A stretch of 64,000 nucleotides of DNA, taken from the IMG/VR virus record IMGVR_UViG_3300016480_000208; one strand, 5' to 3'. The notes beneath the pieces are model-generated. The model did not search any database and had not been told where the DNA came from. It saw nothing but the letters and a program-made list of their open reading frames with translations. Below are positions 937 through 63,101 of the stretch, piece after piece. Source of the stretch: a virus. Taxonomy: Duplodnaviria; Heunggongvirae; Uroviricota; Caudoviricetes; Demerecviridae. The position numbers and the translations under genes are program-made. Each line of letters opens with the position of its first letter. Within the stretch, counting starts at the first letter, position 1.

Positions 937-2112
937 CTATGCATCGGTTGAGGAAGGATGGCCAGCACACTCAAAATACAGTTCGGCGAGTTCGGGGGAA
1001 TTCTTCCTGTCACCTAACCAAGTGTAGTATCTTGAAGCGTGGATGGTGTTCATCAGAGATACCAGTTCTTTTCTTGATGGTAGGTTTTTGATATTTGGGT
1101 GTGGGGTCTTTTTGGCTGTTTCCCATAGATAAGCTGATAGTAGGGTTATTTCTGGTATGTTGAAGGGAACTGTACCCTTCCCAGTACCGTGTGGGCGGAG
1201 CTTATCTAGCAGGAAAGTTACGAAGTCATCCAAGTCAAAGTCGATGACTGTGTTGCCCTTTTCAGCAGCAACCCGTACTTTTTCCGTTGGAACAGCAGCG
1301 TTAGAAGCTACTTCAAACTCTGGCTCTTTAACCTCTTTAATAACCAACTTAAGTAGGTATGAGTTGATATTAGTGCCAAATACTTTTCGCAGTAGGCCAC
1401 GCTGAACACTCAGTGCGCGGGTTCCAGCTTTGGAAGCTGGGCTCGCGAAGGCTACAATGTTTGCTTGAGTTTTAATCTACTCCAGCAATTCGTCATTAGT
1501 GAACCTATACACTTGCTTGGTTCTCTAGTACCACATCTATGACAAGAATATCTGGAGATTATCAGTGTGCACTCCCATATCACTCAATTTACCAACATCC
1601 TGCAATAGAGTGTCTGGGAAGCTGCCTGAGATAACAGGGTATTGGTCGTTGACTCGGTCAATCAACAAGCCCACGGATTTAGGCTCATCCTACCTCTCAT
1701 TCAAGGTCAACCACGTAAACTAACCTTCTACAGGGTATTCATCGTATGGTAGCATATACTCAAATACGTTGGGCAATCCGGTGACTTGAACCTTTTCCCC
1801 TCGTAGCTCCAACCATTTTACCTAGAATGCTGCTTCTAGGTCAAGCAGGTTCTTATACTTGGTAGCTGCGGCAATGTACAAAGCCTATTTGAAATCCGGT
1901 AACATGTTCTCGAAAGGAAGTACCTGAGTAGCTTCTTCAACATCATAACCCTTAGCAATAAGGTCGTTTAGCTGCTTTAAATCCTTATCATGTTGATATC
2001 TGTATAGTTTCATTTGTTCTCTCCAAAAAGCTGAGACCCATTCCCAGCTACTTTTATTAGTATACACTATTTTTGTCTTTGGGTAAAGTACAAAAACGAA
2101 ACAACCCAGCAC
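937..2112 (-). CDS. Hypothetical protein of ~390 aa. The frame is continuous only if ~8 in-frame TAG codons are translated.
   Basis: Six-frame ORFs 937..1347 and 1885..2112 are in the same frame. The ORF 1885..2112 terminates at + 'cta' (TAG on minus) and the frame continues through further TAGs with no TAA or TGA. Confidence 0.45.
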
Positions 2113-2733
2113 AAGGCTGGGTTATGTTAATTACCAAACAACTTTAATATCTTGATGTTGAGGGATACCGTGTTTTTCCCTGATTTCTTTAACAGTGGGG
2201 CGCTCACCATTATAGGTAAACCAGTTATTGCCCTCTTTATCAGCAAACATCCGAGGTTCAATCATATTGAGACCCATACCCCAGCCATCAAACATAATAA
2301 TCCAGTAACCATTAGCCATATTATTTCTCCACTTGTTGGCAGAAATGCCAATCATACTTTGAGCCTAGCCGACTTTTAAGGTCATATGCGATTTTCTCAC
2401 ATTTTTCTTTAGATGTGATGTTATCCACATTAATAGAGCCACCAGTAGACACATTACCCCAACCAACAGACATGTACAAAACCAACAACCAAACTTGCAT
2501 ACTCTTATCTCCTCCACCCTGCGCCGCACCGCTAAAAAGCGGATACCGCAGGCTGTTATTTACGTGTAAATGCGTAGATTAACAAGAAAATAGGATAGAG
2601 CGGCCACAGCAGTCCGCCTATAATGAAGGGCCACCAAACCTCCCCCTTCTTAATCTTAGTGCCTATATAGCACTTCTCTAAAAAGATGGCCGCAATTACT
2701 GCGACCATTAAGTAGATAATCAATACTTGCATA

Positions 2734-4350
2734 TTACAGCTGACTTACCAACAGAGCACGGATTTCCTTGAGGGAAGTCTCTACCAGAAGCTTACCGTCA
2801 CGGAATACCGGCTGGAGAAGGCCTTCAGCTTCACGGGCTTCAGAAACTTCATCTTCCATGTAGATTTCCCCATTATCGTTACGGCCTACGTAAATTAGGC
2901 CCTTAGCAGACTTCTTCTTACGGTCAGTCTTAGGGTCTTTCGCAATTGCCTGACGCTCACCATTGACTACGATGGAGGTAGCCTTCATAGCACTGCCATG
3001 GGTATCCCGAGTAACATATTGGTAGGTGAAGCTACCAATCCCGAGAACTACAGAAGGTACAAAACCTTTCTTCATCAGTTTGCGGTGAATCTGACGCTGG
3101 CGTTCCAGCGTAATGGAGTCTCCGTAAATAGCCCCAATATGGGAGTCCAGCAGTTTATAGCTTTGTGGACGATAGGTGTAGCATTCATCTACCGGAGCCC
3201 ATTCTACATAGGTGCCTCCAAAGATGTCCCAGAGACTCTCTATCAGACCTTTTACTTCGTACTGAGAGATTTCTTCAAACTTCATAAGACCATGTTCATT
3301 AGCCTTAACTACCTTAATGAACTCATTGGTTTCCTGTACCAAATAAATACCTTCTGCTGTAATTTGCTGAATAGTATCTACATCACTATAGTCCAAGCCA
3401 CACAGGATATCTACAGGGTCACCAGAATCGGGACGGATAACCAGAGTACCTTGACGAGCCATGATTTCATCTTTCAGGGCAGGCAGGTATTCGCCTACGA
3501 GCTTCCAGAAGTCCCAGGTATCAGATACCACAGACAGGATGCCAGTAGGGGTAACATTGGTCATCAGATGTCTCAGGGACTCCAGCTCACCATCCGTACC
3601 ATAAGAACACATCACGCTGTGCTCAGTAGCATCCACAGATGCCATTACCAGCTCTTTCTCTACATCGGCATTGTAGAAGTATTCTGCGAACTCGGCTGCC
3701 GGATAAGTGTCGCTGCCCACGAAACTGCACAGGTGACCAAAGCCACTCATTGCGGCAGCCATGCTGCCGAACATCCCACGGTAAGAGAAGTCATGGCCCA
3801 TAAAGGGAATCATCTCTTTAGCAATCGGGGTTTTCTCGAATGCCTTACGGTATGCAAACGCCGTGGTTGCAGAAGTAGACATTGGCCAGAGTTCCGCAGA
3901 GAGCAGAGTTTCCAGCAGACCAGGAACCCAGTGGAAGCCAGGAATAGTGTTCTTAATAGTAAACGGGGGAACCCCGTAAGGAACAATAGTACCTTCTGGC
4001 AGTGCCTTGATTTCAATAGGCAGATAGCCTACATCCCAAAGCGCTTCAATATGCCCTACTGGCACTTTCTTGCCCAGAACGGAATTAACCATACGGGAAT
4101 ACTTAGCTACAGCCTTTTTCTTATCAACACAGAAGAAGGTAGCATTCCAGCGGTCAATCAGGAACTCCTTAATTACATACTGGAGGCCCAGGTGGACAAC
4201 GCCACCGATTTCCAGAGCTTCTGGGATGTTGCTCAGTTTATTGGAGCGGTTGGTAAAGTTTTCATATGCGTAACTAACACCAGGTTTGTAAGCAAACGGG
4301 TGATAAGTTTTGTAAGCATCAGACATGAGAGGGGCGGTCAATTGAAACAT
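2734..4350 (-). CDS. nadV: Nicotinamide phosphoribosyltransferase (NAMPT / NadV family); possibly the NAMPT-like Namat partner of an NAD-reconstitution pair.
   Basis: 538-aa ORF with NAMPT-like motifs (GYLPIEIKALPEGT..., DSGDPVD). No in-frame TAG; it ends with TAA. Confidence 0.8.
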   Translation of the reverse strand: MFQLTAPLMSDAYKTYHPFAYKPGVSYAYENFTNRSNKLSNIPEALEIGGVVHLGLQYVIKEFLIDRWNATFFCVDKKKAVAKYSRMVNSVLGKKVPVGHIEALWDVGYLPIEIKALPEGTIVPYGVPPFTIKNTIPGFHWVPGLLETLLSAELWPMSTSATTAFAYRKAFEKTPIAKEMIPFMGHDFSYRGMFGSMAAAMSGFGHLCSFVGSDTYPAAEFAEYFYNADVEKELVMASVDATEHSVMCSYGTDGELESLRHLMTNVTPTGILSVVSDTWDFWKLVGEYLPALKDEIMARQGTLVIRPDSGDPVDILCGLDYSDVDTIQQITAEGIYLVQETNEFIKVVKANEHGLMKFEEISQYEVKGLIESLWDIFGGTYVEWAPVDECYTYRPQSYKLLDSHIGAIYGDSITLERQRQIHRKLMKKGFVPSVVLGIGSFTYQYVTRDTHGSAMKATSIVVNGERQAIAKDPKTDRKKKSAKGLIYVGRNDNGEIYMEDEVSEAREAEGLLQPVFRDGKLLVETSLKEIRALLVSQL

Positions 4351-4363
4351 ATATTATTCCTTA

Positions 4364-4597
4364 TTAGTTAAAAGGATTACTGAGGAAATCATGAACACTT
4401 ACAACTTCTTTATAGTCGATACCTTCACGGAGATTGGCCTCGATTACTATACGCCCCTCATCGTCCCTAAGGGATAGCCCTCGACTACACGTTCCCGTGA
4501 TTTCAAAAATATGTCCTACGGTGAAAGTACCACCGGGTACTTTCAATGCCCGCATAAGGGAAATACGTTTCCCCACAACAGTATCAGGTATAAACAT
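4364..4597 (-). CDS. Hypothetical small protein.
   Basis: 77-aa ORF whose start overlaps the prs-like stop (ATGA junction). Confidence 0.35.
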   Translation of the reverse strand: MFIPDTVVGKRISLMRALKVPGGTFTVGHIFEITGTCSRGLSLRDDEGRIVIEANLREGIDYKEVVSVHDFLSNPFN

Positions 4598-5376
4598 TAT
4601 TCAGTCCAGTCATAGGTTGCAGTAACATGGTATCCTGCTTCTTGGAGGCGTTCTTTAGCTCCGTAGCTGAAAATGCCATGAGTGACATGCAAGTAAAGGT
4701 TATTGGCTCCAGCGTCTTTCAGTGCCTTAGCCAACTGCAAGAAAGTACGGCCACCATCACAGATGTCATCCATAACCAGTAAGTCCTTTCCTTGAACATT
4801 GCCAAACACTATTGGGTCACTAAGCTCACCTGTCTTAGTATTCCGCATCTTGCCTGCTTGAATGACTTCTGGGATATTGTAGGCCTTTGCCGCTTTTTGT
4901 ACCTTCTTGGTTGCCCCAAAATCAGGGGCAACCAGAGCGTCAACAACAGGTACAAACTCTGGCATTTCCCAAGGCTCATTAAACACCTTGTCAATCAAGG
5001 CAGAACCTACATCACTGTGGCAGTCGTTAATGACAATAACGTCGACTGGGAGAGTATTCAACAGCTTAGTGAATACTTTAAGAGAGAAGGCTTGACCTGG
5101 CTCTGTAACACGGTCTTGTCGTGCATAGGGTAGATACGGAAGATGCAGAATTAGGTGGACGTTACCCAACAACTCACGAACAGCATCAACAACCAGGGCC
5201 AGTAGCATAATCTCCCCATTACGAATATGGGCCTCGATAGTAACCTCTTCTTCAAAGTCCCACATTTTGGCATCGGCGTAGTCTAGTACAACGTCGTACT
5301 CACCACCGGCGTACTGCTTAACGTTAATTGGCATTTCGGTGCCACGGGCACCGGTAACTTTAAACTTGTTCATCAT
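4597..5376 (-). CDS. prs: Ribose-phosphate pyrophosphokinase-like protein (Prs family; candidate ADP-ribose pyrophosphokinase Adps).
   Basis: PRPP synthetase signatures LPYLPYARQDR and DDICDGGRT. Lies adjacent to the nadV-like gene. Confidence 0.7.
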   Translation of the reverse strand: MMNKFKVTGARGTEMPINVKQYAGGEYDVVLDYADAKMWDFEEEVTIEAHIRNGEIMLLALVVDAVRELLGNVHLILHLPYLPYARQDRVTEPGQAFSLKVFTKLLNTLPVDVIVINDCHSDVGSALIDKVFNEPWEMPEFVPVVDALVAPDFGATKKVQKAAKAYNIPEVIQAGKMRNTKTGELSDPIVFGNVQGKDLLVMDDICDGGRTFLQLAKALKDAGANNLYLHVTHGIFSYGAKERLQEAGYHVTATYDWTE

Positions 5377-5945
5377 AGGTAAGTCTCCAAAATTGCTTTA
5401 ATTGCTTTAAGTTTGGTATCTTCGTCCCAGTCCAGCTTAATTATGTCGGTTATCTTTTTAATAGGGGTTTCTGGCACAATCTCTGTGCGGGCTATGATTC
5501 TACCATTTTTAGCCAACCATGCAGCTACCTTAAGTGTGAGCTCGGAGTTTTCCGGGTTATTACGGCAACTAACACACAAACCGTATTCATCAATCTCAGG
5601 TTTACCACATTTACATAGGTAGGTTTTCAGTTGTGGTACGAAAGGTAGTTTAAACACCCTGTACCTATCATAAGCGCTCTGTAGCCTATCAAACTCCCTA
5701 ACTGCTCGGTATTCTGGGAAGTTACCTATAGTAACCGGTATTTGGTGTAGGCCCCAAAAGTCCCACAACTTGAAGTAATCCTTAAACAGAGCACTGTACC
5801 AAGGCTTTTGTCTGTATACGTTGAAACCTTCTGGAAACTTAATGCTTAACCGTTTCTTGTAGGAAATAACTGGCAGTGCTTTTTGCGGCAAGTTATTGCC
5901 GCTAAGATCGATATAAGACATTGAAGTTCCTCCCGATTTATGCAA
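5373..5945 (-). CDS. Hypothetical Cys-rich protein.
   Basis: 190-aa ORF with CKCG...CVSC motifs. Upstream block with extended -10 (tgatataat, minus strand). Confidence 0.45.
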   Translation of the reverse strand: MHKSGGTSMSYIDLSGNNLPQKALPVISYKKRLSIKFPEGFNVYRQKPWYSALFKDYFKLWDFWGLHQIPVTIGNFPEYRAVREFDRLQSAYDRYRVFKLPFVPQLKTYLCKCGKPEIDEYGLCVSCRNNPENSELTLKVAAWLAKNGRIIARTEIVPETPIKKITDIIKLDWDEDTKLKAIKAILETYL

Positions 5946-8165: not shown

Positions 8166-8723
8166 TTACCCCACTATGATTTTGTGATGGTCGGCCACCT
8201 CAATCTCTTTAGACTCCAGACGGTCGATCACTTCTTCAAGAAGAAGATACCGACCCCAGGCATCCCAGCCCACATCCATACTACGCCCAAAACCTTCCAA
8301 GTTACCATGGGAGTGGCCGTAAATATGCAGACTGCCGCGGCCCTGGTCTTGCCAAGCACGAATCGAGTAATGGCACATAACAATCTTCTTACCGTCAAAC
8401 TTATGGCAATACAGGTCTCGAACATTAGCTACTCCCACATCTAGTAGCTGCTCTTCTGTTACTTTATCCAGCCACCCATCGTGGTTACCCCGGATAATAA
8501 CCTTGTTACCCGTCATGGACCTCAGTACATCCAGAGTAAATCTTGCCGTACCAAAGCTAAAGTCGCCCAAAATGTACAGAGTATCAGTTTCTCGTACAAG
8601 GTCGTTATGGTATTCGATAAGGGCCTCAGTCATTGCTTCCCGAGAATCCCAAGGACGGTGCTCGGGACACAGATTAAGAATGTTAAGGTGACGGTGATGA
8701 AGGTCACTGGTGAAATAAATCAT
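8166..8723 (-). CDS. Calcineurin-like metallophosphoesterase.
   Basis: GDxxFG, GNHD(GW) and GHSH motifs. Confidence 0.65.
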   Translation of the reverse strand: MIYFTSDLHHRHLNILNLCPEHRPWDSREAMTEALIEYHNDLVRETDTLYILGDFSFGTARFTLDVLRSMTGNKVIIRGNHDGWLDKVTEEQLLDVGVANVRDLYCHKFDGKKIVMCHYSIRAWQDQGRGSLHIYGHSHGNLEGFGRSMDVGWDAWGRYLLLEEVIDRLESKEIEVADHHKIIVG

Positions 8724-8724
8724 T

Positions 8725-9327
8725 TTATACCTCGAATTCTGTTATGCGGCAAGCAGTGTTTATAAAAGTAGTTAGAGTGGTAGTGATTGTACCTGTATCT
8801 TCATGTATATGCCCAAATACGTGGAACTTTGGTGGTACGGTGTCCACGAAATTGGCGATAGCAGTAGAGCCTACATGTTCTCCGCTGAAAACTGAGTCTA
8901 AGGTATAGAAGGGCGGGCTATGGGTTACCAACACATCCACCTTGCCAACCTTCTCAAGTTTATTAGCAATGAACTTTTCATCAGCCATAAACTCGAACGG
9001 CCCATAAATTGGAGACCATGGCATGAAACCAAACTTAACCCCTTCATGTGTATAGGTGCCACCAAAGAACACCATAGCATTTGGGATATTACTGGTAATC
9101 ATCTCAACTACTTCTGGCTGAGTAAGACAAGTATCATGGTTTCCTGGGATTATAAATACTTTGTCAAATGCAGAGCAATAAATATCCCAATCAAATATGA
9201 AACTGGCTATTTCATTTATAGTACCACGGTTAGTTAAGTCCCCGGCGATAATCAGAATATCCCCACCATGGCCATTTACTTTAGGTGGCTTTGCTCCATG
9301 GATATCAGACGTAGCTGTGATTTTCAT
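8725..9327 (-). CDS. Metallophosphoesterase (Icc-like).
   Basis: DIHG, GDLTNRG and GNHD motifs. Confidence 0.65.
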   Translation of the reverse strand: MKITATSDIHGAKPPKVNGHGGDILIIAGDLTNRGTINEIASFIFDWDIYCSAFDKVFIIPGNHDTCLTQPEVVEMITSNIPNAMVFFGGTYTHEGVKFGFMPWSPIYGPFEFMADEKFIANKLEKVGKVDVLVTHSPPFYTLDSVFSGEHVGSTAIANFVDTVPPKFHVFGHIHEDTGTITTTLTTFINTACRITEFEV

Positions 9328-42946: not shown

Positions 42947-43722
42947 TATTACTCAGCAGCTTCTTTAGCCTTCTTGGCGTCAGCAGCAGCCTTTTTAGCT
43001 GCTCCATCATAGTCAACAGCGCTCAGGCCACGACGGGTCAACATGGACTTGACAGAACGCTCGCCCTTGCCGGTTGCTTCGACCAGCTGTGCAACGGTCA
43101 TTTCAGCAACGTCCAGACCTTCGAACTAATCGGCAGAGGCCTTACGTGCGCTGGCTTCTTGCTTCGGAATAGCAGCGATGCGGCCTTCGCGATGCAGGGA
43201 CAGAGCCTTACCACGAATCTGCGGCAGGGTACGACCCAGGGCAGCAGCAACTGCGTCGATAGAAGCGCCTTCATTGGCCATCTCTACGAACACTGCTTCT
43301 TCTTCTTCGGTATAAGTACGAACTACTTCCTTCTTCGGGGTAGCCTTAACCAGAGAGGTTAGTTCCTCAGACAGAACCTTACCTTGTACGGTACGAGCAT
43401 TAACTTCGAAGGACAGTTGACCAGCCAGTTCAGCATAGGTAAACACACCAGGATTTGCGTTCAGAACGCTATGCAGTTCAGCAGTCTGCTCTGGAGACCA
43501 AGCGGTCTTTTGGGCTGACAGAGACTCTACAGTATAACCAGCCTTACGCAGCTTAGCTGCTACAGAGCGAGAAGTAGTGTCCAGCTTTTCGGCCAGGTCA
43601 ACAACAACTTCTTTGCTTACGCTTGCCATACCGTCAACAGTGCTGAACAGGGTATTGGTCATTTCTTCGTTCCACTTCTTAGCCATTTGTATTTCTCTCC
43701 ACAAGCTCTTTAATAGAGCCAA
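42947..43722 (-). CDS. Hypothetical Ala/Lys-rich protein; the annotated ORF end at 43126 is a TAG and the frame continues to TAA at 42947.
   Basis: 'cta' at 43126-28 followed by 59 more sense codons (...KKAAADAKKAKEAAE) and then a hairpin terminator. Confidence 0.45.
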
Positions 43723-44458
43723 TAGTTATTCCTAGTCCTACAGCTTTCTTATAGGAGCTGGATGTTGTTTTCGATTCATCTTCGCATACGAGGAAGTTAG
43801 TTGCCTTAGTTACTGTGTCTTTTACAGTGTAACCTAAAGAGGTTAAATAGGTTTTCGCTTCGTCGCGGTTTTTAAAGTCATTCAAAGAACCAGTAATTAC
43901 TATGACTAAGCCGTTAGTAAGAGGTGTTACATTGGTTGGGGCTTTAGTACTAGGAACTACTCGGTCTTCTAGGTCAAACACCCAAGGGTTTTCAATAGAG
44001 AACTCTTGAAGTAAACCGGTCAACCTAGGGGTTACTACGTCCTTCATTGTGAAGGCTTGTTCCAAAGAACTGGCTTGTGCTGCTAAAGTTTTTGAAGCAG
44101 TAGCACCAAAGCCAGTAATGGCTAAGCCTTCTAGGAACTTGTCCATTGGAATCTTGGTCGTCTTGTCTACCAACTCTTTGTGTAGCTTATTAGCCATGAG
44201 GTCTGAAAAACCCGCATTTATAAAGTCTTCGACAGTTAGACCAAGAAATTCAGGTATCGTTAATACCGAAATTTTTTCCAATGTTGCTGGGCCAAATCCT
44301 TTTATTGATAGGGCTTTGCAAAACTTTTCTAGTCGCTTGCCGGTCTGGGCAGCACAACCAGATTTATTCGGGCATTTCAGCGTAACCGCAATTGGTGACA
44401 CTACCCGTTCCAACAGTGTTCCACAGCTTGGACACTGTGTTGGTGGAATAATCTTCAT
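43679..44458 (-). CDS. ligB: NAD-dependent DNA ligase, C-terminal part (Zn finger, HhH, BRCT); ligB-like.
   Basis: CPSCGTLLER zinc finger and BRCT-like C-terminus. Confidence 0.6.
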   Translation of the reverse strand: MKIIPPTQCPSCGTLLERVVSPIAVTLKCPNKSGCAAQTGKRLEKFCKALSIKGFGPATLEKISVLTIPEFLGLTVEDFINAGFSDLMANKLHKELVDKTTKIPMDKFLEGLAITGFGATASKTLAAQASSLEQAFTMKDVVTPRLTGLLQEFSIENPWVFDLEDRVVPSTKAPTNVTPLTNGLVIVITGSLNDFKNRDEAKTYLTSLGYTVKDTVTKATNFLVCEDESKTTSSSYKKAVGLGITIGSIKELVERNTNG

Positions 44459-44636: not shown

Positions 44637-45602
44637 TTAATCCGCTCTCCCAACAATAGTTGGTATAATGTCCCCCGCCCGGATAACCGCCACCTTACAC
44701 CCAATTTCCAGACCCAAGGTCTCGATATACGTGATGTTGTTCAAAGTAGCTCGGCTAATTGAGGTTCCCTTAATATCTACTGGTTCCAAAATGGCCACTG
44801 GCGTGACTCTGCCAGAGGAGCCTACTTGCCATACTACATCCAGTAGGGTTGTTTCTACCGGAGGTTCGTCCTCTTTTACAGCATAAGCTCCCCGCGGGAA
44901 TTTGGACGTGTAGCCTAGCTCTGCAAACACAGTGTTATCGTCCACTCGGTAAACGATACCATCCTGTGGCGCAGTATCAACATATGGGTGATGAAGTGCT
45001 ACATCAAATCCTTGGGAGTCTAGGATTTGCATATCAGCGCTGTAGCTGTTTGTCATTGCTGGACTTAGTCCGTAGGCAATGAAAACCACGCCATATTCGT
45101 CAAATACCTTACGGGCTTCGTTAAGGTCTTTTTCCGTAACTAGCTTACCAGAAACAATATTTCTGGAGTTAGCCGAGGCTCTAGTGGCCACCACTTCGCC
45201 AGTTACTTGTACTAGGCCTTTTACACCAAAAAAGGTGTGGGGGATTTGAAGCAGCTTGATTTTCTCGGTTACGTCTTGACCCTTCTCTCCATCACCGCGA
45301 GTAGTGGCACGCACCAACCGTCCATCAAGATAAACCAGTTCAACAGCGTTGCCGTCGTACTTCGGAGATTCCACCATAGACTTGCCTGCACAGGAGGTGG
45401 GAATCTTATCTCCACGTTTCGGATACACTTTTTGCAGAGAGTACATTGGGTATGCAAGAGGGATGTCTCCAGTAGGCCCAATACTTTTTTCTGCATTGTA
45501 GTACATAACCAAAGCATCATACTGCTCGTCGGACAATTCCGGAGTGCCTTTAGCATATAGTTCTTGGTGATGCTTAAGTAGCTTTTCGATTTCTAAATTC
45601 AT
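44637..45602 (-). CDS. ligA: NAD-dependent DNA ligase, N-terminal adenylation part; ligA-like.
   Basis: KYDG adenylation motif and NAD-ligase Ia/adenylation-domain similarity. It ends with a genuine TAA, followed by a 178-nt gap with a promoter-like block. Confidence 0.65.
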   Translation of the reverse strand: MNLEIEKLLKHHQELYAKGTPELSDEQYDALVMYYNAEKSIGPTGDIPLAYPMYSLQKVYPKRGDKIPTSCAGKSMVESPKYDGNAVELVYLDGRLVRATTRGDGEKGQDVTEKIKLLQIPHTFFGVKGLVQVTGEVVATRASANSRNIVSGKLVTEKDLNEARKVFDEYGVVFIAYGLSPAMTNSYSADMQILDSQGFDVALHHPYVDTAPQDGIVYRVDDNTVFAELGYTSKFPRGAYAVKEDEPPVETTLLDVVWQVGSSGRVTPVAILEPVDIKGTSISRATLNNITYIETLGLEIGCKVAVIRAGDIIPTIVGRAD

Positions 45603-48229: not shown

Positions 48230-51157
48230 TTATAACTCGAGCATTTCCGAGTAATCTACAGGAGATTCTTCCTTAAGTGCAGAAGGAAGCGGTAGACTAT
48301 TAAATGAGCAGTACTTCTCTACGTTAAGTAGGGCGTTTGCAGGTTCCCATACCCAATGTTTAGCATCCAAAGGAATACCTAACATGCTGAACAGTAGGGT
48401 AGGAATTTTGTTGTTATAGTGTACACCAGCCCTAAACAGCTTTGGCAGGTTTACAAGACACAAGTCAATAAACTTGGCCTTCTTCCAGCCAGCCTCTAAT
48501 TGGGCATCCATGATTTGACATAATTCGTCCCATAGCCCTGGAATCATCATGAATCGGTATGCCTTTTCAGCCTTCTTCAAGGTGTTATCCTCTAGGAAGT
48601 CAATAATCATATCTACAGTGATGTCTTCCACCCCTGAGAAGTGTTGGACAGCTTTGTAGATCATTTGAGCGTTATTAATCCTTCGTGTATTTGGGATATT
48701 TTTACTCATATAGATTTTGGTGGCGTATAAATTCAAGTGCTCTTCTGAGTACATTGCCAATGCTTTGTACTCCAGCAAGTTCTCCTCACACGGAGGGAGA
48801 ATAGTAACCTTGCTAGTTTTCTTGAGCATGTTGTAGCGGACGTAGAACTGGTACTTATTATGCTCACGCATCTTCCTTAAAAAGAAGATGGTTTGCAAAT
48901 CACCAACCATACCCTTATCAAAAGACGACAAGCACTTAGCGGGAGTAGACACGCCACCGTTGGCATCACCAGAAGTCCAGTAATGGACGTAAATCGGGTG
49001 ACGCTCTCTGCAGATAGCCTGAATACGAATTGCTGGACTGTTTAAGCCAGATGATGTAATACAGTACACATGGGTAAAGTACTTCTGGAAGTCAACACCA
49101 GAGGTCATACTTGGGCTTGTAATACAGATATCCACACATAGCTCTTTTAGGGCTTTGGTGGGTACAGCAGCATCCATGATCATCCGCACGTCTTCATCAT
49201 CCCTACTCTCAGCATGAATCTCCACAATAGTTGGGACCCTAACACCATTAGCAATACAGTGTTGCTGGATACCGTAAGAAAGTTCGTCAATCTGTTTAGG
49301 GCCGTAGTCCGTTACTACTAAGATACGCATTGGTAGACCCGAGCTAGCGTTTGTTAACATATGGCCAACAATATCAGGCTCAGTCTTGTGCTCATACACT
49401 TTAGCGTCTAGGTGAGTAGGAACCTCCGACTGGTAGGTTATAGTGGGTTTTGTATGCCCCACCAAGGCTGAGTAGGCTTCCACAGTCTCGCTAGAGGTGT
49501 CCCCGTCTGCCAAGATCACGTAATCACACTGAATCATCAACAGATACAGCGCGTTAAGGATACGGTCTCGGCGCTCAGTGTCAATGATAGCACTGTCAAG
49601 TAGTTCTTGGATGGTACTGTCGGACTCGTCAATAAACAAGGTTTTGGTGCCAGGAATACCAGTAAATCTCTCCGCAACTTTATGCAAGCTGTGGATAGTG
49701 GTAGCGATACCATTCTTGTTTATTTCAAAGCCTAGCTTGGTGTATACATCCAAATCCATTGCAGAAGCGATTGATTCTACCAGAGTAACACGGTTGGTGA
49801 CAGCTAGAATAGAGCCCAGCTTGCCACGCTTCTGTAGTTCGCGAACAGAGTAGGTTTTGCCCATGCCCAGCGATGCTTTCAGAAAACTGAGCTTACCACG
49901 TTCAGGGAACGTGTCAGGTAGCACAAGCTTGCCCATAGGAGAAGGCTCACAATCGTGAATTTGGTGCTTCCACTTATTCTCCTTAGGAAAGGAGACACTA
50001 CGAGCAACGTCGGCAATAGACCTAGCCATAGCAAAGCGGAAACCGTTATGTAGGTAATCTTTGACCTTTTTCGTACTGCCATGACGCTTAGAATAGCTCC
50101 GTAGAATTGGTGTAAGAATATTTCGCTCAAAGTCTTTGATATCCAGACCTTCTTGCAATGCGTCAAAATAAAGGGTGTGTACAATTTTGATGTACATGTT
50201 GTCACTTACTTTACCTGTCATGATATCATTACACTTTCTCTGCAAGTTTGCAGGCAGCTGCGCTACAGCTTTATCAACCTCTGGATTAGCCAAAACAGGA
50301 ATACCGTCTAGTTTAGCCATGATTTCCAGGTGGTGCTTATTCAGCTCCTCGTACTCCGTTGCCTCAATAGCCGATTCCAGAGCTTTTGGGATAGTAGCAC
50401 TACAGCCAAAAGTATAGTACAGTCTATCTGTACTATGGAAGGGGTCAGCTAGCCCCTCAAGGGTTGGTGGGGCCGTAATCAGAATACGCGCTGGAGAGTA
50501 GGTAGTATTGTCGAGGAATCCTTGCAGTTTTTGGTTAATTTGGTCGATCAAAAAACGAATCTGACCACCAGTAAGTTCATGCTCATTCACAAAGTAGAAG
50601 TGCGCACGAATACCGGAACTGATACCTGCCGAAGAGGATGCCAGAACAATGTGACCCATAGTCTCAGGGAAAAATTCTGGGAACTCTTGATGCAGTAGAC
50701 CTACGATGTATTTGCCAACCTCTGGCAAATCAATTGGGTTGGGCGCAGACATATCAACCCAAGAGTCAATGTCAAATGCTATTAGTTTAAAGGGGGCATT
50801 GTGACTATCGAATGCTACCTTAGTACGTGGAACAAGTGTATCTTGCCCCACCTTCTTTTTACCCACCACCATTAACAGGTTTGGGTTATTTTGAGATTTG
50901 CGTAGAAATTTTACAGCACTCTTGATACTGTCAGGATTTGCTTCCTGTACTACCTCGTAGTAGAATTTCTTCCTTAGATCGCCTGATTCTGCTTTTAGCA
51001 GAAACGGCACAGGCATACTATCTTCCAGCTTGAAGGTAGACGTTATGCTTTTTGTAAAGCTAGGGGTGTGAGTCAAAGGTACATACTCTTCCCTCATGCT
51101 ATTATCTGAGGTTCGGATGTACCTACGCACCAATCTTGGAGCTAGGATAGAGAACAT
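48230..51157 (-). CDS. Large P-loop NTPase (Walker A LGMGKTY, Walker B FIDESD); putative replication helicase or primase-helicase.
   Basis: 975-aa ORF with no in-frame TAG. Confidence 0.55.
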   Translation of the reverse strand: MFSILAPRLVRRYIRTSDNSMREEYVPLTHTPSFTKSITSTFKLEDSMPVPFLLKAESGDLRKKFYYEVVQEANPDSIKSAVKFLRKSQNNPNLLMVVGKKKVGQDTLVPRTKVAFDSHNAPFKLIAFDIDSWVDMSAPNPIDLPEVGKYIVGLLHQEFPEFFPETMGHIVLASSSAGISSGIRAHFYFVNEHELTGGQIRFLIDQINQKLQGFLDNTTYSPARILITAPPTLEGLADPFHSTDRLYYTFGCSATIPKALESAIEATEYEELNKHHLEIMAKLDGIPVLANPEVDKAVAQLPANLQRKCNDIMTGKVSDNMYIKIVHTLYFDALQEGLDIKDFERNILTPILRSYSKRHGSTKKVKDYLHNGFRFAMARSIADVARSVSFPKENKWKHQIHDCEPSPMGKLVLPDTFPERGKLSFLKASLGMGKTYSVRELQKRGKLGSILAVTNRVTLVESIASAMDLDVYTKLGFEINKNGIATTIHSLHKVAERFTGIPGTKTLFIDESDSTIQELLDSAIIDTERRDRILNALYLLMIQCDYVILADGDTSSETVEAYSALVGHTKPTITYQSEVPTHLDAKVYEHKTEPDIVGHMLTNASSGLPMRILVVTDYGPKQIDELSYGIQQHCIANGVRVPTIVEIHAESRDDEDVRMIMDAAVPTKALKELCVDICITSPSMTSGVDFQKYFTHVYCITSSGLNSPAIRIQAICRERHPIYVHYWTSGDANGGVSTPAKCLSSFDKGMVGDLQTIFFLRKMREHNKYQFYVRYNMLKKTSKVTILPPCEENLLEYKALAMYSEEHLNLYATKIYMSKNIPNTRRINNAQMIYKAVQHFSGVEDITVDMIIDFLEDNTLKKAEKAYRFMMIPGLWDELCQIMDAQLEAGWKKAKFIDLCLVNLPKLFRAGVHYNNKIPTLLFSMLGIPLDAKHWVWEPANALLNVEKYCSFNSLPLPSALKEESPVDYSEMLEL

Positions 51158-52586
51158 TAATTGACAACCTCTTAATTATAACTTAGGCTCACATAAAATC
51201 CGTCCAAAGTACGTATTTCAGTGGCACTTTTTTAAGGGTGTGAAAAAGCCTAGCCCTTCGAGCGTCGATATGGACGTGGACTAGGCAGTTTCAGAAATAA
51301 ACCCCAATATACAATACTCAGCAGGAGCTCTAAAGAGCTTTTGTACTAAAGACCAAACCCTTCTTTCGAAGGTAAACAAAGACTATACTAAAACCTATTC
51401 GACCGTACACTGGTGTGGTTAAGTCTTCCAGCATTACTAGGTGTTCCCCAACACCTAGTAACACTTTCTCTCTATATAATACCAGATTACTTGATAGAGT
51501 CCCACCTCACACAATACATCTGAACCACTCTTATCACGCCGTAACTTTATTGTTTGGAACAATGGGTTCCAGGAGGCTATATGGTGCTAGCGGTTCTCAC
51601 TAGCTGCCACCTCCCACTCAAGTTATGTAACGGAAGCGCTTTGGCATAGGTCAGTTAGCATACTGCCTATTATTACCTGTAATTTAATACAAGAGACCAA
51701 CTATTGTCGAATACTTTTCAGTATTTGTTACCACCCTACTACAAGGAAGTAACAAATACTGCTTCGGGGGAAGCAGTACTCGGGTTTACTCAGACTCTCC
51801 AGTGATCCTGTGGCGTCCACTGGCATCTATTCAGTTTTCCATCTGTTACGTTTTCACTTCTGCGACCACATCCATAGACACACGTAAAACATGTCCAGCC
51901 TTGCCAGCTTTTGGGATGTACCATTTTGCTTTGTTTTCGGTCTTTAGTAGGGAAATTGTCGCCAACCTACTGAGTATGTATATTATACTGCTTTAACCGT
52001 AAGCAGTACCCAATCTGTTTCAAGCAACCCCTTTCGAGGTGGGCTTCTCCCGCTAAAGAGATTCCCGTCTAAGGAGGAAAACCGCGCTGGCTTCCTCGAA
52101 TTCCCTAAAGTATGTGAGCTTCTGGCCTTTGAGCGACCATTGGCGTTACGTCGGAGCTGGGTGTGATCCCACAACTGAATCTACCTCCATAGACCAGTCT
52201 CACAGCTTTACCTCTACTACTACAAAGATTCTCCACCTGTCTTTTCACAGGCTTTCACCTGCGGCAAGGCTGTCAGAGAATAGGAGGCTGCTTCATAATC
52301 TCGGTACCAAATAGGCCGCTAAACCTAAAAGGATACTGACCGGCAGCAGAGGACTCGTAACCCGCATCCATTACTGGATATTCCTCACCAACGCTTTCAG
52401 GAGGTAGACAATGTCACGTACTAACATTGCCTAGTACTTACGGCGCTGACCACGAACGTGGCTAGCTAGGGAAACCCCTAGTAATACCGACTTTTCGGGA
52501 AAGCCTTGTTCACAGACCTGAGAGGGTTTATTTCTCAGTTCATGCATATAGTATATCAAGTTCTAGCGTAGAAATCAACAGATATT

Positions 52587-60276: not shown

Positions 60277-60363
60277 GGTGAATATGAGCAATGTGGTTAG
60301 CTTCAGCGGTCTGTAAAACCGTGCTCTCTGGGCCTGTTGGTTCGATTCCAACATTCACCACCA
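60277..60363 (+). tRNA. tRNA-Tyr (GUA), type II long variable arm.
   Basis: Acceptor ggtgaat/attcacc+a+cca, T-arm gttgg-ttcgatt-ccaac, anticodon loop ctGTAaa. Confidence 0.6.
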
Positions 60364-60369
60364 ATTTCT

Positions 60370-60455
60370 GGAGGTTTTGAGCAGTATGGCGAGCTCAGGT
60401 GGCTGTAACCCACTAACTTCTATGTTTATAGGTTCGAATCCTATAACCTCCACCA
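60370..60455 (+). tRNA. tRNA-Tyr (GUA) second copy, type II.
   Basis: Acceptor ggaggtt/aacctcc, D-stem gagc/gctc, anticodon loop ctGTAac, T-arm atagg-ttcgaat-cctat. Confidence 0.6.
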
Positions 60456-60461
60456 ATTTCT

Positions 60462-60577
60462 GGACTTGTAGCGACAACGGTTCGATAGGTGTACCCTGTG
60501 TGCGGAGTAATCTGTAATCACTATCAGGTAAAATCCCTATGGAGCGGTGACTGGTTGGAATCCAGTAAAGTCCACCA
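60462..60577 (+). ncRNA. Oversized tRNA-like element (116 nt) with a canonical acceptor and T-arm but an unresolved core.
   Basis: 5' ggacttg pairs with 3' aaagtcc+a+cca; T-arm actgg-ttggaat-ccagt; no standard D or anticodon arms could be placed. Confidence 0.3.
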
Positions 60578-60584
60578 ATTTAAT

Positions 60585-60659
60585 ATTGGCGTGTTCTAAC
60601 GGTAAGATGCAGGTCTCCAAAACCTTGCGATGAGGGTTCGAATCCTTCCGCCTTTGCCA
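60585..60659 (+). tRNA. tRNA-Trp (CCA)-like with A1-U72, G73 and two U:U acceptor mismatches (possibly degenerate).
   Basis: Anticodon stem-loop caggt-ctCCAaa-acctt, T-arm gaggg-ttcgaat-ccttc, 3' cgcctttgcca. Confidence 0.4.
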
Positions 60660-60665
60660 GTTAAT

Positions 60666-60741
60666 AGACCACTAACTTAATGGTTAGAGTATCCGCCTCT
60701 TAAGCGGAAGGTTCTGAGTTCGAGTCTCAGGTGGTCTACCA
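60666..60741 (+). tRNA. tRNA-Lys (CUU).
   Basis: Acceptor agaccac/gtggtct, D actt/gagt, anticodon tccgc-ctCTTaa-gcgga, T-loop ttcgagt. Confidence 0.8.
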
Positions 60742-60923
60742 GTTTTGCAAGTATAATGTATGAGAAGAATGAGGTAAGCGTGGGGTAACGTTCTCAAGGG
60801 TACACGGTTAGAAAGACACTCGTAATATTAGTCGTCCAGCCCTTATGCCGTGTGAAGTCTAGCCTTTAGGGCAGACCAGATTCCTGATAAAGCCTACAGA
60901 TTATACTTGCAAATTTATTTAAT

Positions 60924-60997
60924 GCTCGGTTATTTTAACGGGAGAATACTTCCCTTACAAGGAAGAGGAGTTGGTTCGATTCCAACACTGAGTACCA
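60924..60997 (+). tRNA. tRNA-Val (UAC).
   Basis: Acceptor gctcggt/actgagt, anticodon cttcc-ctTACaa-ggaag, T-arm gttgg-ttcgatt-ccaac. Confidence 0.7.
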
Positions 60998-61003
60998 AAC
61001 AGT

Positions 61004-61079
61004 TGAGACGTTGTGTAATTGGTTAGCACATGTGACTTTGACTCACATAGTTAGGGTTCGAGCCCCTACGTCTCTGCCA
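61004..61079 (+). tRNA. tRNA-Gln (UUG).
   Basis: Anticodon tgtga-ctTTGac-tcaca, T-arm taggg-ttcgagc-cccta, 3' ...cgtctctgcca. Confidence 0.65.
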
Positions 61080-61173
61080 AACACTCTAAACCTGAATTAA
61101 CAGGGGAAGGGGGCCGTGAGTGTACTATGTAATCCTCCAGGTTATAGAGTAAATATACGGCTCTGCCAATTTT

Positions 61174-61250
61174 GGGTTAGAAGCACATAAGGTATGTGCG
61201 GTCGCCTGTTAAGCGAATGGTAGAAGGTTCGAATCCTTCCTGGCCCGCCA
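61174..61250 (+). tRNA. tRNA-Asn (GUU).
   Basis: Acceptor gggttag/ctggccc, anticodon gtcgc-ctGTTaa-gcgaa, T-arm gaagg-ttcgaat-ccttc. Confidence 0.7.
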
Positions 61251-61264
61251 AATTAAAACAAAGA

Positions 61265-61293
61265 TTGCTATCAAGCTGACAACTTGATATAAT
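61265..61293 (+). promoter_or_regulatory. Promoter of the same family (TTGCTA-17-tgaTATAAT) inside the tRNA island.
   Basis: Near-identical to the 62389 module. Confidence 0.65.
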
Positions 61294-61315
61294 ATCTTCA
61301 GAAATTAAGAATAAT

Positions 61316-61393
61316 GCGTCACTAATTCAATTGGTTTAGAATATCCGGCTTTTAACCGGAAGGTTGTAGGTTCGAGTCCTACGTGGCGTACCA
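61316..61393 (+). tRNA. tRNA-Lys (UUU).
   Basis: Acceptor gcgtcac/gtggcgt, D attc/gaat, anticodon tccgg-ctTTTaa-ccgga, T-arm gtagg-ttcgagt-cctac. Confidence 0.8.
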
Positions 61394-61400
61394 TTTTAAT

Positions 61401-61475
61401 GCTCCTATCGACTAGCGGTTAGGTCACTACCCTTTCAAGGTAGTAACATGGGTTCGAATCCCATTAGGAGTACCA
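61401..61475 (+). tRNA. tRNA-Glu (UUC).
   Basis: Acceptor gctccta/taggagt, anticodon ctacc-ctTTCaa-ggtag, T-arm atggg-ttcgaat-cccat. Confidence 0.8.
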
Positions 61476-61490
61476 TTTAAGAGAGTTAAA

Positions 61491-61814
61491 ATGTATAATA
61501 ACGGAAAAGTAGCAGAAATAACTGCAATGCTGCACTATGCAGAAGCGGGTTATGAGATATTTCTCCCACAAGGTTCATAGTCCTGTGACTTTATTGCTCT
61601 TTCCTCAGAAAGACTTATAAGGGTAGAGGTTAAGTCCACGGGTTAGGTTAACGGGGAAATAGACCTAAGAAAAAGAACCCATACTACTACCACAAAAACT
61701 CAGCATTTTAACTCTAATAAGAGTGATGAAACTTTCTTGTATAATCTACTTACAAAGTAGTTTAAGATAGTGTAGTCAAACACTTTAGAAGGTAGACGTT
61801 CTATACGCGTCTAA
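61491..61814 (+). CDS. Small PD-(D/E)XK nuclease (Hjc-like resolvase / homing-endonuclease-like) inside the tRNA island, 4 in-frame TAG codons; its 3' extent is uncertain.
   Basis: GKVAEITAMLHYAEAGYEIFLPQGS*SCDFIALSSERLIRVEVKSTG matches the Hjc-type E...D...EVK motif. RBS gagag. Confidence 0.4.
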
Positions 61815-61906
61815 TACCAGAACTTCCTTTGCTGTCCACGGACGCTATGGGTTGCTGGAGCAAGCAAGGCTCTGCCCAGCGTGAAGTCGCCTTGCAACAT
61901 TTTAAT

Positions 61907-61981
61907 GCTCTGTTAGTTTAATGGAGAGAACACTTCGCTACGGACGAAGAGGTCTGGGTTCGACTCCTAGACGGAGTACCA
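61907..61981 (+). tRNA. tRNA-Arg (ACG).
   Basis: Acceptor gctctgt/acggagt, anticodon cttcg-ctACGga-cgaag, T-arm ctggg-ttcgact-cctag. Confidence 0.8.
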
Positions 61982-62290
61982 CTTTTGCCTTGGCCGGCAA
62001 GAAGTCTAGCTAGTAGACTATAACAGCAAGCACGGTTATGGGCCGGATAGCTCATACGTCCAGCCACCCGACGTAAAATAGGGGTTCGTTATGGCAGCTT
62101 ATCGAAGTAAAGCTGGTCGGATATAGCCTAACCGTGAGAAAGGCTGGCCTGTTCCCTCTAACAAAGTCAGGTGGAAGTATCTCTTAGATGTCCAGAGCGG
62201 ATCCCGTTGGGTTGATGCGTGTGTCGGTCTAATTCATACAAGCCATCAGGATTAGCCATCCATAGAGGGGTTTTTAAAGCGTTTTCTGGC

Positions 62291-62367
62291 GTGGGCATAG
62301 GTTATGTCTGGTTAAACTCCACGTTGTGACCGTGGGAAAATGGGTTCAAATCCCATTGCTCACCCCA
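62291..62367 (+). tRNA. tRNA-His (GUG).
   Basis: Acceptor gtgggca/tgctcac + C73, anticodon ccacg-ttGTGac-cgtgg, T-arm atggg-ttcaaat-cccat. Confidence 0.7.
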
Positions 62368-62388
62368 GAGAACGTTTTAAAATAATAA

Positions 62389-62417
62389 TTGCTATCAAGG
62401 TATTAACTTGATATAAT
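62389..62417 (+). promoter_or_regulatory. Strong promoter upstream of the suppressor tRNA (TTGCTA, 17-bp spacer, extended tgaTATAAT).
   Basis: ttgcta 62389-94 and tataat 62412-17. The same module is at 61265-93 (before tRNA-Lys UUU) and 59527-55. Confidence 0.7.
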
Positions 62418-62446
62418 AATCATATGAAATCGAGAGTGGTTTTGAT

Positions 62447-62521
62447 GGGGCATTAGCTCAATGGGAGAGCGGCGGACTCTAAATTCGCTGGTTAACGGTT
62501 CGAGTCCGTTATGCTCCACCA
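62447..62521 (+). tRNA. Amber-suppressor tRNA, anticodon CUA, on a tRNA-Ala-like body (G3:U70, A73). Predicted to decode TAG as alanine.
   Basis: Full cloverleaf: acceptor ggggcat/atgctcc+A+cca with the G3:U70 wobble; D-arm tagctcaatgggagagc (E. coli tRNA-Ala-like); anticodon arm gcgga-ctCTAaa-ttcgc; variable tggtt; T-arm aacgg-ttcgagt-ccgtt. A promoter lies 30 nt upstream. Confidence 0.85.
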
Positions 62522-62533
62522 AAACTACTTTTC

Positions 62534-62609
62534 GGGGCTATAGTTTACATGGGTAAAACCGCTGCCTTGCAAGCAGCAGAATTCGGTTCAATTCCGAATA
62601 GCTCCACCA
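62534..62609 (+). tRNA. tRNA-Ala (UGC).
   Basis: Acceptor ggggcta/tagctcc (G3:U70), A73; anticodon gctgc-ctTGCaa-gcagc; T-arm ttcgg-ttcaatt-ccgaa. Confidence 0.8.
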
Positions 62610-62615
62610 AATAAT

Positions 62616-62714
62616 ACAGGTAAAGTCCAGTGGTTGCTGGTACGAATCAATAAGAAATCTATTTGGGTAGTCCAGTTAGGTTCCGCGGAGGTTCGACTCC
62701 TCATACCTGTTCCA
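62616..62714 (+). ncRNA. Oversized tRNA-like element (99 nt) with a perfect 7-bp acceptor and a T-arm but an unresolved core.
   Basis: 5' acaggta pairs with 3' tacctgt+t+cca; T-arm ggagg-ttcgact-cctc; no convincing anticodon arm found. Confidence 0.3.
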
Positions 62715-62720
62715 AATAAT

Positions 62721-62798
62721 CCGTGTGTAGGCTAGTCAGGTTAGGTCGTCTGGTTTGGGACCAGAAAGTCGAAGGTTCGAATCCTTCCACACGGACCA
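62721..62798 (+). tRNA. tRNA-Pro (UGG).
   Basis: Acceptor ccgtgtg/cacacgg, anticodon tctgg-ttTGGga-ccaga, T-arm gaagg-ttcgaat-ccttc. Confidence 0.8.
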
Positions 62799-62822
62799 AT
62801 TTTCTTAGTAAGGATCTCTGTA

Positions 62823-63022
62823 TGAGAAATAAAACTCGTATGTTTATTGTAGAGCATAAAGGTGAACAGTATATTCAGAAAACTGGAACCTTAAATTTTA
62901 TTTCTCTAAAAGATGGAAGTACGATTCCGGGGGACATAGCCGAAGAATTGGATAGACTGAATAAGTTTAAACATGATTTCGGGTCAAAAACTGGGTGGAA
63001 ATCCGTCTTTACTATAGTTTAA
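62823..63022 (+). CDS. Small hypothetical protein between tRNA-Pro and the tRNA-Met-like gene.
   Basis: ATG with RBS aagga. The longer listed ORF 62723..63022 starts inside tRNA-Pro. Confidence 0.35.
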
Positions 63023-63027
63023 TTGAC

Positions 63028-63101
63028 GCGCTTGGGAGGTAAGGCATCTCACTGGTCTCATAAGCCAGTAGAAGTGGGTTCGATTCCCACTTGCGCAACC
63101 A
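63028..63101 (+). tRNA. tRNA-Met (CAU)-like elongator with an imperfect acceptor stem.
   Basis: Anticodon ctggt-ctCATaa-gccag, T-arm gtggg-ttcgatt-cccac, 3' ttgcgcaacca; the 5' acceptor has two mismatches. Confidence 0.45.

Follow-up and report, generated by a model that had tools for sequence, protein, structure and literature searches.

A probable NARP1-type NAD+ reconstitution module in a T5-like Aeromonas phage

Two neighbouring genes of a phage genome fragment carry the database names of enzymes of nucleotide salvage, and the question raised by the locus is whether they make phosphoribosyl pyrophosphate (PRPP) and nicotinamide mononucleotide (NMN), as the names would have it, or rebuild nicotinamide adenine dinucleotide (NAD+) directly as a counter to host defence. 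The genes lie at 2734-5376 of a stretch of 64,000 nucleotides (hereafter the window) from the virus record IMGVR_UViG_3300016480_000208, which belongs to the Demerecviridae. The original prediction, made by a reader of the sequence alone, took the pair for a module of the type of NARP1 (NAD+ reconstitution pathway 1), which consists of the ADP-ribose pyrophosphokinase Adps and the nicotinamide ADP-ribose transferase Namat, and not for the arrangement of a nicotinamide phosphoribosyltransferase (NadV) with an NMN adenylyltransferase (NMNAT). Here we compared both proteins and their surroundings with the experimentally validated systems, and we give a probability of about 0.86 to the reading of the locus as the NARP1 counter-defence module of a T5-like Aeromonas phage.

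The following genes, all starting with ATG, make up the locus.

2734..4350, minus strand: namat, putative nicotinamide ADP-ribose transferase of the Nampt family, 538 amino acids (aa)
4364..4597, minus strand: ORF77, small protein of 77 aa between adps and namat, function unknown, with a match to phrog_26571
4597..5376, minus strand: adps, putative ADP-ribose pyrophosphokinase (ADPR-PP synthetase) of the Prs family, 259 aa

The coordinates and sizes of these three open reading frames (ORFs), first described as a 538-aa NAMPT-family protein and a 259-aa ribose-phosphate-pyrophosphokinase-family protein with a small ORF between them, were confirmed, and the families were assigned with Pfam, NCBIfam and PHROG. 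The genes are intact, adjacent and co-directional, and they are packed tightly in an operon-like manner with overlapping stop and start codons. The start of adps overlaps the stop of a 190-aa ORF lying upstream (ATGA), the start of ORF77 overlaps the stop of adps (TAATG), and the ATG of namat is preceded by a 13-nt spacer with AAGGA. The two enzymes also have the clade position, the signature motifs and the catalytic residues of validated enzymes, as detailed below.

The source is a T5-like Aeromonas phage of the genus Shenzhenvirus. The region of the window has 95% DNA identity to Aeromonas phage AhP_Mru1 (Demerecviridae, Shenzhenvirus), the more distant relatives being AhSzq-1, AhSzw-1, TS3 and Akh-2, and the other genes of the window are typical for a T5-like phage (DNA polymerase A, ribonucleotide reductases, thymidylate synthase, dihydrofolate reductase, RNase H, PhoH, a split NAD-dependent DNA ligase and a tRNA cluster). 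Orthologues from this genus have already been catalogued. Table S1 of Osterman et al. (10.1101/2024.02.11.579819) gives AhSzq-1 MG676224_00004, AhSzw-1 MG676225_00003 and Akh-2 MK318083_00015 as Prs/Adps homologues with the entry 'Namat within 10 genes: Yes', and Table S2 of the same work gives AhSzq-1 MG676224_00002 and AhSzw-1 MG676225_00001 as 'Adps-associated' Namat homologues. The pairing of Adps and Namat is not due to chance, since 97% of Adps-clade genes were reported to have Namat within 10 genes (Osterman et al., 10.1101/2024.02.11.579819); in the window the Namat homologue is within that distance of adps, on the same strand and with one 77-aa gene in between.

The 538-aa protein was matched by Pfam NAPRTase PF04095 (E 3e-35), NCBIfam PRK09198 (451 bits, cutoff 405) and phrog_448 (599 bits). 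Since validated Namat and the validated Nampt of phage KVP40 pass PRK09198 and phrog_448 alike, and family names do not discriminate either, the two enzymes were told apart by the clamp motif and by the profiles phrog_12872 and phrog_15800. In the structure of SPbetaL1 Namat it is an adenine-binding 'selectivity clamp' that distinguishes Namat from Nampt (PMC12774641). Its SCH signature is GSX-phi-X-phi-X-phi-TRD in Namat and GGGLLQ..[DNT]RD in the Nampts of KVP40 type, the second element of the clamp is a longer beta1-beta2 loop (SCL), and the adenine-stacking residue of this loop is either an Arg at the third position or a Lys or Tyr followed by a stacking residue (PMC12774641). The alignment was made of the window Namat, the validated Namats of SPbetaL1 and Bas63, the Namat of AG74 (a close relative of the validated operon of phage Gary), the validated KVP40 Nampt and two T4-like Nampts.

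In this alignment the SCH motif of the window protein reads G439-S-F441-T-Y-Q-Y445-V-T-R-D449 (GSFTYQYVTRD), in agreement with the published signature of Namat; the corresponding stretch is GSFTYQYNTRD and GSYTYQYMTRD in the validated Namats, whereas the Nampts have GGGLLQQLDRD, GGGLLQMVNRD and GGGLLQEVTRD, and the GGGLLQ motif does not occur in the window protein. The SCL loop is long as in Namats, with K38 at the position of K42 in Bas63 and R40 in SPbetaL1. The conserved residues are D11, Y13, F188, S189, R191, D214, A241, R306, D308, G410, D411, G439, S440, F441, Y445, T447, R448 and D449, and the only change among the NAD+-contact positions of SPbetaL1 Namat is S412 for A362, a position at which the validated Bas63 Namat likewise has Ser. 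Residues R306, D215 and F189 of SPbetaL1 Namat, which are essential by mutation, align with R306, D214 and F188 of the window protein. Compared with SPbetaL1 Namat, the window protein has two insertions, of about 46 aa and about 12 aa, after the RPDSGDP motif (aa ~320-365 and ~383-394); those found there in the Namats of Bas63 and AG74 are longer and unrelated, and the Nampts lack insertions at this place.

The scores point in the same direction. In blastp the protein gave 402 bits with SPbetaL1 Namat and 361 bits with the other validated Namat, against 132 bits with the validated KVP40 Nampt, and so it does not fall in the Nampt clade of KVP40, whose motif it also lacks. The best matches in the PDB were 9w5x and 9w5w (414 bits), whose aligned sequence is that of SPbetaL1 Namat, while Xanthomonas Nampt scored 176 bits and human NAMPT about 173 bits. 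On phrog_12872 the protein scored 250.6 bits, where validated Namat gives 225-262 and Nampt 62-79, and on phrog_15800 it scored 247.6 bits, where validated Namat gives 311-480 and Nampt 95-111; by these profiles it would sit with Namat on the first and nearer to Namat than to Nampt on the second. Judged by motif, residues and profiles together, the 538-aa protein is predicted to be a Namat and not a Nampt. The second-best solved relative (348 bits), PDB 9ke8/9keo, is named 'nicotinamide phosphoribosyltransferase' and has GAQTYQRNTRD at the clamp position, which is neither the Namat nor the Nampt motif.

For the 259-aa protein the profile matches were Pribosyl_synth, Pribosyltran_N, TIGR01251 ribP_PPkin (123.7 bits, cutoff 113) and phrog_619 (255 bits). 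It has 96.1% protein identity to AhSzq-1 MG676224_00004, 38% identity (125 bits) to the validated Bas63 Adps and 27% identity to gamma-proteobacterial Prs (78-87 bits over all those compared), with the Prs of E. coli and Aeromonas at 80-87 bits. As pairwise scores alone are not decisive, the placement was done by a tree and by profile scores. In a neighbour-joining tree with Kimura distances the protein grouped with those of AhSzq-1 and Akh-2 at 100% bootstrap, and this group is nested in a clade of Namat-associated phage proteins which includes the validated Adps of Bas63, SPbetaL1 and FADO and is separate from Prs, here a narrow outgroup.

The curated Prs models, which are built from all phyla, give the same separation. 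On TIGR01251 the 123.7 bits of the window protein compare with 98-138.5 for validated Adps and 420-423 for true Prs, and on PRK01259 its 101 bits compare with 74-101 for validated Adps and 532 for Prs; on all the curated models it is about 300 bits below the E. coli and Aeromonas Prs and scores like validated Adps. All ten specific NCBIfam Prs models were failed, with 50-101 bits against cutoffs of 296-536. On phrog_619 the window protein (255 bits) is within the range of validated Adps (248-333), with E. coli Prs at 193. The N-terminal (Adps) half of phrog_12872 picked up the window protein with 91 bits and validated Adps as well, and at the cutoff applied it did not pick up E. coli Prs.

At the level of residues, K176 aligns with the essential catalytic K162 of SPbetaL1 Adps and is within the Adps motif K-x-R-N-x-x-T-G-E, where Prs has DKRRPRANVSQ, and the motifs K.RN..TGE, DCHSDV and DDICDGGRT are all of Adps type. 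With the housekeeping class I Prs of E. coli and Aeromonas the protein shares the fold family, the RQDR motif, the DD..GG.T PRPP-loop and the catalytic-loop lysine, but it is shorter than Prs by about 20 residues at the N-terminus and about 40 at the C-terminus (259 versus 315 aa). By these measures it behaves as a predicted Adps, unlike housekeeping Prs. Both proteins therefore fall with the validated NARP1 enzymes and not with housekeeping Prs or the Nampt of KVP40 type, which supports the NARP1 reading over NadV with NMNAT.

The profile phrog_12872 (547 positions) is of interest in its own right, as its two halves are matched by the two window enzymes, the N-terminal one by Adps and the C-terminal one by Namat. 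This profile and the entry for Shigella phage Ag3 in Table S1 of Osterman et al. suggest that Adps and Namat also occur naturally as a fused family, and for telling Namat from Nampt the C-terminal half does better than the main family model.

The mechanism proposed here for the window module is taken from established work on the homologues. Host NADase defences with SIR2, TIR or SEFIR effectors (type I Thoeris, DSR1/2, SIR2-HerA) would split NAD+ into ADP-ribose (ADPR) and nicotinamide. The 259-aa Adps would transfer pyrophosphate from ATP to the 1'' position of ADP-ribose, giving ADPR-PP, and the 538-aa Namat would let nicotinamide displace the pyrophosphate of ADPR-PP, giving NAD+ directly. 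The clamp residues F441 and Y445 together with one SCL residue are expected to hold the adenine, so that ADPR-PP would be favoured over PRPP. It is from this likeness that we infer the activities of both enzymes, their expression in the infected cell and a phenotype against host defence. The supply of NAD+ plausibly matters to the phage, because it encodes a NAD+ consumer, an NAD-dependent (LigA-type) DNA ligase which is split over two genes (43679-44458 and 44637-45602, minus strand, about 180 bp apart), one for the adenylation domain and OB fold and the other for the Zn finger and BRCT domain.

The validated NARP1 systems of Bas63, SPbetaL1 and FADO share with the window both enzyme families, the gene order, with adps upstream of namat, and the orientation, and the Namat clamp motif, the NAD-contact residues, the Adps lysine and motifs and the scores on Prs models all match. 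The window differs from them in the intercalated 77-aa gene, and its identity to them is 30-38% for Adps and 39-44% for Namat. Another known arrangement is NARP1-AP (Adps-Adpp-Namat) of Vibrio phage Gary and its relative AG74, in which Adpp, a Macro-domain phosphatase, converts the ADPR-1''-phosphate made by aRES into ADPR (10.64898/2026.01.28.702374). These phages are also T5-like Demerecviridae, with a three-gene layout shared with the window and a Namat 52.5% identical to that of the window; their middle gene, however, is a 158-aa Macro phosphatase (Pfam Macro) and that of the window is an unrelated 77-aa SH3-like protein. By the definition of NARP1-AP, Adpp carries a Macro domain of PF14519, PF01661 or PF20016 and is encoded no more than two genes away from the operon; no Macro domain was found in ORF77, in the 190-aa and 101-aa upstream ORFs, in the 58-aa downstream ORF or in the 44 scanned window ORFs of at least 120 aa. 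In the absence of a Macro-domain phosphatase the module is therefore predicted not to rescue the phage from aRES defences, which produce ADPR-1''-phosphate.

Several points weigh against reading the locus as NARP1. The case for this phage and its genus would be one of homology throughout. In pairwise comparison Firmicute-phage Adps (58-82 bits) resemble the window Adps no more than gamma-proteobacterial Prs (78-87 bits) do, and the proposed placement of the window protein relies on its position in the tree, on the profile scores and on its resemblance to Bas63 Adps; in that tree the Prs outgroup comprised gamma-proteobacteria only, all at least 80% identical to E. coli Prs. In the SCL loop K38 is followed by L39, where Bas63 has an aromatic residue (Lys-Leu versus Lys-Trp) and AG74 has His, and one of the three adenine-stacking contacts is consequently not evident from the sequence. 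Validated Namat, moreover, also makes NMN from PRPP in vitro (Osterman et al., 10.1101/2024.02.11.579819; PMC12774641), and given this synthesis together with an NMNAT of NadR type in the lineage, an NMN route could run as a minor side activity.

ORF77 was analyzed separately. Its only profile match was phrog_26571 (unknown function, E 1.4e-10), and no Pfam or NCBIfam match was found. The gene is retained in the same slot in AhP_Mru1, AhSzq-1 and TS3, and there are further homologues in four metagenomic proteins. Homologues with 35-44% identity occur in the jumbo phages 121Q/PBECO4 (Asteriusvirus) and RaK2/K64-1 (Alcyoneusvirus), and in 121Q and RaK2 they lie among unrelated small early-type genes and not beside NAD genes. 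RaK2 and K64-1 carry a Nampt of NARP2 type elsewhere in the genome, which is too weak for a link of ORF77 to NAD. An AlphaFold model of moderate confidence (pLDDT 70.8) is all-beta with an SH3-like barrel, and fold searches with it against PDB and BFVD gave only non-significant matches, mostly to SH3-domain structures or to uncharacterised phage proteins. Three identities of the protein were considered and rejected: a truncated Adpp or Macro domain (no Pfam Macro match, and no BLAST match to AG74 Adpp at E<=100), a RyR domain (no Pfam RyR match) and a gene strictly tied to NARP1 (homologues in 121Q and RaK2 located elsewhere). A RyR-domain protein beside the NARP1 genes was likewise looked for, and ORF77 and the neighbouring genes had no match to Pfam RyR.

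The alternative that survives best would make the module a three-component variant of NARP1, with ORF77 as a functional accessory which perhaps binds or converts a molecule derived from ADPR or modulates Adps and Namat. The gene stands between adps and namat in four Shenzhenvirus genomes despite a protein divergence of 60-89%, it is translationally coupled to adps, it occupies the slot which the Macro phosphatase Adpp has in the Vibrio T5-like phages, and the known extensions of NARP1 (Adpp, RyDEP) are extra genes in or beside the operon. Yet its closest homologues outside the genus are in jumbo phages, away from any NAD gene; the protein is without a Macro, RyR or other domain or ligand-binding signature and has a generic SH3-like predicted fold; ICP1, the next closest relative by Namat, has no gene in the slot; and small 'moron' genes are frequent between the early genes of phages. 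We consider this variant unlikely, and ORF77 is treated as an uncharacterised passenger and not as a known NARP1 accessory. A bolder form of the idea, in which ORF77 is a third component with a regulating or range-extending role in the pathway (it might bind or channel a molecule derived from ADPR, say, or protect the enzymes) and the lineage stacks this extended NARP1 with a NadR/PnuC pair of NARP3 type for several independent routes to NAD+, is speculative and would have to be given a similarly low chance.

The alternative of classical salvage takes the database names at their word: the 259-aa protein would be a true PRPP synthetase and the 538-aa protein a Nampt which joins nicotinamide and PRPP to NMN, and the NMN would be adenylylated by the host or by the NadR-like NMNAT of the lineage in a way like NARP2. 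In its favour are the names 'ribose-phosphate pyrophosphokinase' and 'nicotinamide phosphoribosyl transferase', the marginal pass of TIGR01251 (123.7 bits, cutoff 113), the synthesis of NMN from PRPP by validated Namat in vitro, and the presence of a NadR-family NMNAT elsewhere in the genome of every sequenced relative. The same names and the same marginal TIGR01251 scores, however, are found on enzymes experimentally shown not to be Prs or Nampt, the 259-aa protein is 200-480 bits under every Prs equivalog cutoff, and the Namat clamp motif is present with the GGGLLQ of Nampt absent. With SPbetaL1 Adps no product was obtained from the Prs substrate (Osterman et al.).

An NMNAT was searched for in the window and in the relatives. 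A cytidylyltransferase/NMNAT domain (CTP_transf_like) was not found among the 44 scanned window ORFs, and tblastn of the 64-kb window with NatV of the KVP40-like phage VH7D, the NadR-like NMNAT and PnuC as queries gave no match. In AhP_Mru1 (PV190393.1), on the other hand, positions 50796-52534 encode a 341-aa protein of the NadR family (CTP_transf_like + AAA_28), a predicted NMNAT and ribosylnicotinamide kinase, followed by a PnuC transporter (NMN_transporter). The lack of an NMNAT nearby, which had been proposed as a check on the NARP1 reading, holds for the window and fails literally at the scale of whole genomes, as this NadR-family NMNAT stands beside PnuC in all five sequenced Shenzhenvirus genomes. 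The pair of AhP_Mru1 is about 9 kb beyond the point corresponding to the 3' end of the window, and that of the source phage probably lies just outside the window; it is tens of kb away from the NARP1 genes (in AhSzq-1, about 2-3 kb versus 66-68 kb).

With VH7D NatV as query, the whole AhP_Mru1 genome gave only a 38-aa match to the HxGH motif of the NadR-like gene, and since only this region matches, the NadR-like protein is not the NadM-Nudix NatV of NARP2. The pair corresponds, by its predicted domains, to NARP3, which is the NadR-like ribosylnicotinamide kinase/NMNAT with PnuC of the T5-like phage Bas30 (Sci Adv 2026, PMC13464706), and would be a separate second NAD+ module of the lineage. 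NARP3 has the same goal of restoring NAD+ and is from the same phage family, but its genes and chemistry (import, phosphorylation and adenylylation of nicotinamide riboside) differ from those of the NARP1 module, and the pair is not in the window. Being a separate module of NARP3 type and not the NatV partner of a Nampt, it does not refute NARP1, and it argues against the salvage alternative, as the NMNAT of the relatives is of NadR type with PnuC and not the NatV that goes with the Nampts of NARP2. Because of this enzyme in the lineage, any NMN from the residual Nampt activity of Namat could be completed to NAD+ by the phage itself. In the NARP3 paper (PMC13464706) no statement was found on NARP1 and NARP3 in one genome, and their co-occurrence in one genus is apparently unremarked.

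NARP2 itself (Nampt + NatV of KVP40) shares with the window the Nampt/Namat superfamily, the catalytic core (F, R, D, R, D) and the purpose of restoring NAD+. It differs in that the aromatic clamp is replaced by GGGLLQQLDRD in KVP40 Nampt, whose SCL loop is short and whose identity to the window protein is 37% over only 226 aa, in that it needs the NadM-Nudix NMNAT, absent from the window and from AhP_Mru1, and in that it goes without Adps. Taking all this together, we regard classical salvage as quite improbable. The last alternative, that what is left here of an NAD+ module has decayed or become inactive, could draw on a neighbourhood in flux, where a MazG-like gene is deleted relative to the relatives, and on the two insertions in Namat, but it is highly improbable, as both ORFs are of full length with catalytic and ligand-contact residues intact, the insertions share their site with those of the validated Bas63 Namat and of the AG74 Namat, and the proteins are conserved across the genus.

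The NARP1 module thus remains the favoured reading, and two further features border it.

5373..5945, minus strand: upstream ORF, 190 aa from TTG, probably 181 aa from the ATG at 5921; function unknown
2101..2125, minus strand: terminator-like GC-rich hairpin with T-run from a consensus scan, 10 pairs of which 5 are G-C, tail TTCGTTTTTG

The product of the upstream ORF is 98.9% identical to a 181-aa hypothetical protein of AhP_Mru1, its only Pfam match (DUF6625) was sub-threshold, and it is context and not a component of NARP1. In AhP_Mru1, AhSzq-1 and TS3 a gene for a 95-aa MazG-like pyrophosphatase is directly upstream of adps. This gene is cleanly deleted in the window (about 280 bp, junction at 5373-5380), and its last three codons (TYL) are fused in frame to the upstream ORF. 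The hairpin at 2101-2125, which is a consensus match only, is the first terminator-like site on the minus strand downstream of namat, and the transcription unit may end there. Promoter-like sites of the region did not exceed chance (9 found versus 12.2 expected from shuffles), and no promoter is claimed.

Some other features of the window and of its nearest relative were also recorded. Two adjacent genes for calcineurin-like metallophosphoesterases are on the minus strand at 8166-8723 and 8725-9327, and a third Metallophos protein is among the scanned ORFs. The two are not of Macro type and do not belong to NARP1-AP, and in AG74, too, a phosphoesterase stands immediately before the NARP1-AP operon; as candidates for the 'phage phosphatase' of NARP1-AP they were rejected, that enzyme being a Macro-domain protein inside the operon. 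At 104-408, near the start of the window, a unit of about 137 bp recurs in direct orientation as two to three copies that are 92% identical over 105 nt; the stretch is apparently non-coding, and the repeat was not reported by TRF. The plus strand carries 15 tRNA genes at 60277-63101, one of which (62447-62521, anticodon CTA) is called tRNA-Pyl by ARAGORN and a suppressor tRNA in the AhP_Mru1 record. This record has 377 features in 117 kb, with many conserved genes, among them those of ribonucleotide reductase, tape measure and portal, split into short coding sequences, which suggests frameshift errors in the assembly and annotation to be used with care.

The module is an ordinary member of the published NARP1 family, and its core was already known. 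NARP1 was reported in 859 phage genomes, 4.3% of those analysed (Osterman et al., 10.1101/2024.02.11.579819); the homologue searches made here found Adps in 1562 phage records and Namat/Nampt in 2043. What remains of interest at this locus is the role of ORF77, the stacking of NARP1 with a module of NARP3 type, and the gain or loss of the MazG-like gene beside adps. The locus also illustrates that a counter-defence pathway of this phage goes unseen under the names 'ribose-phosphate pyrophosphokinase' and 'nicotinamide phosphoribosyltransferase', and that NARP1 can be recognised by a reader from the sequence alone. The Aeromonas hydrophila phages of the genus are candidates for aquaculture use, and the carriage of NARP1, and probably of NARP3 too, would predict their resistance to NAD+-depleting defences of the SIR2, TIR and SEFIR types, not to aRES.

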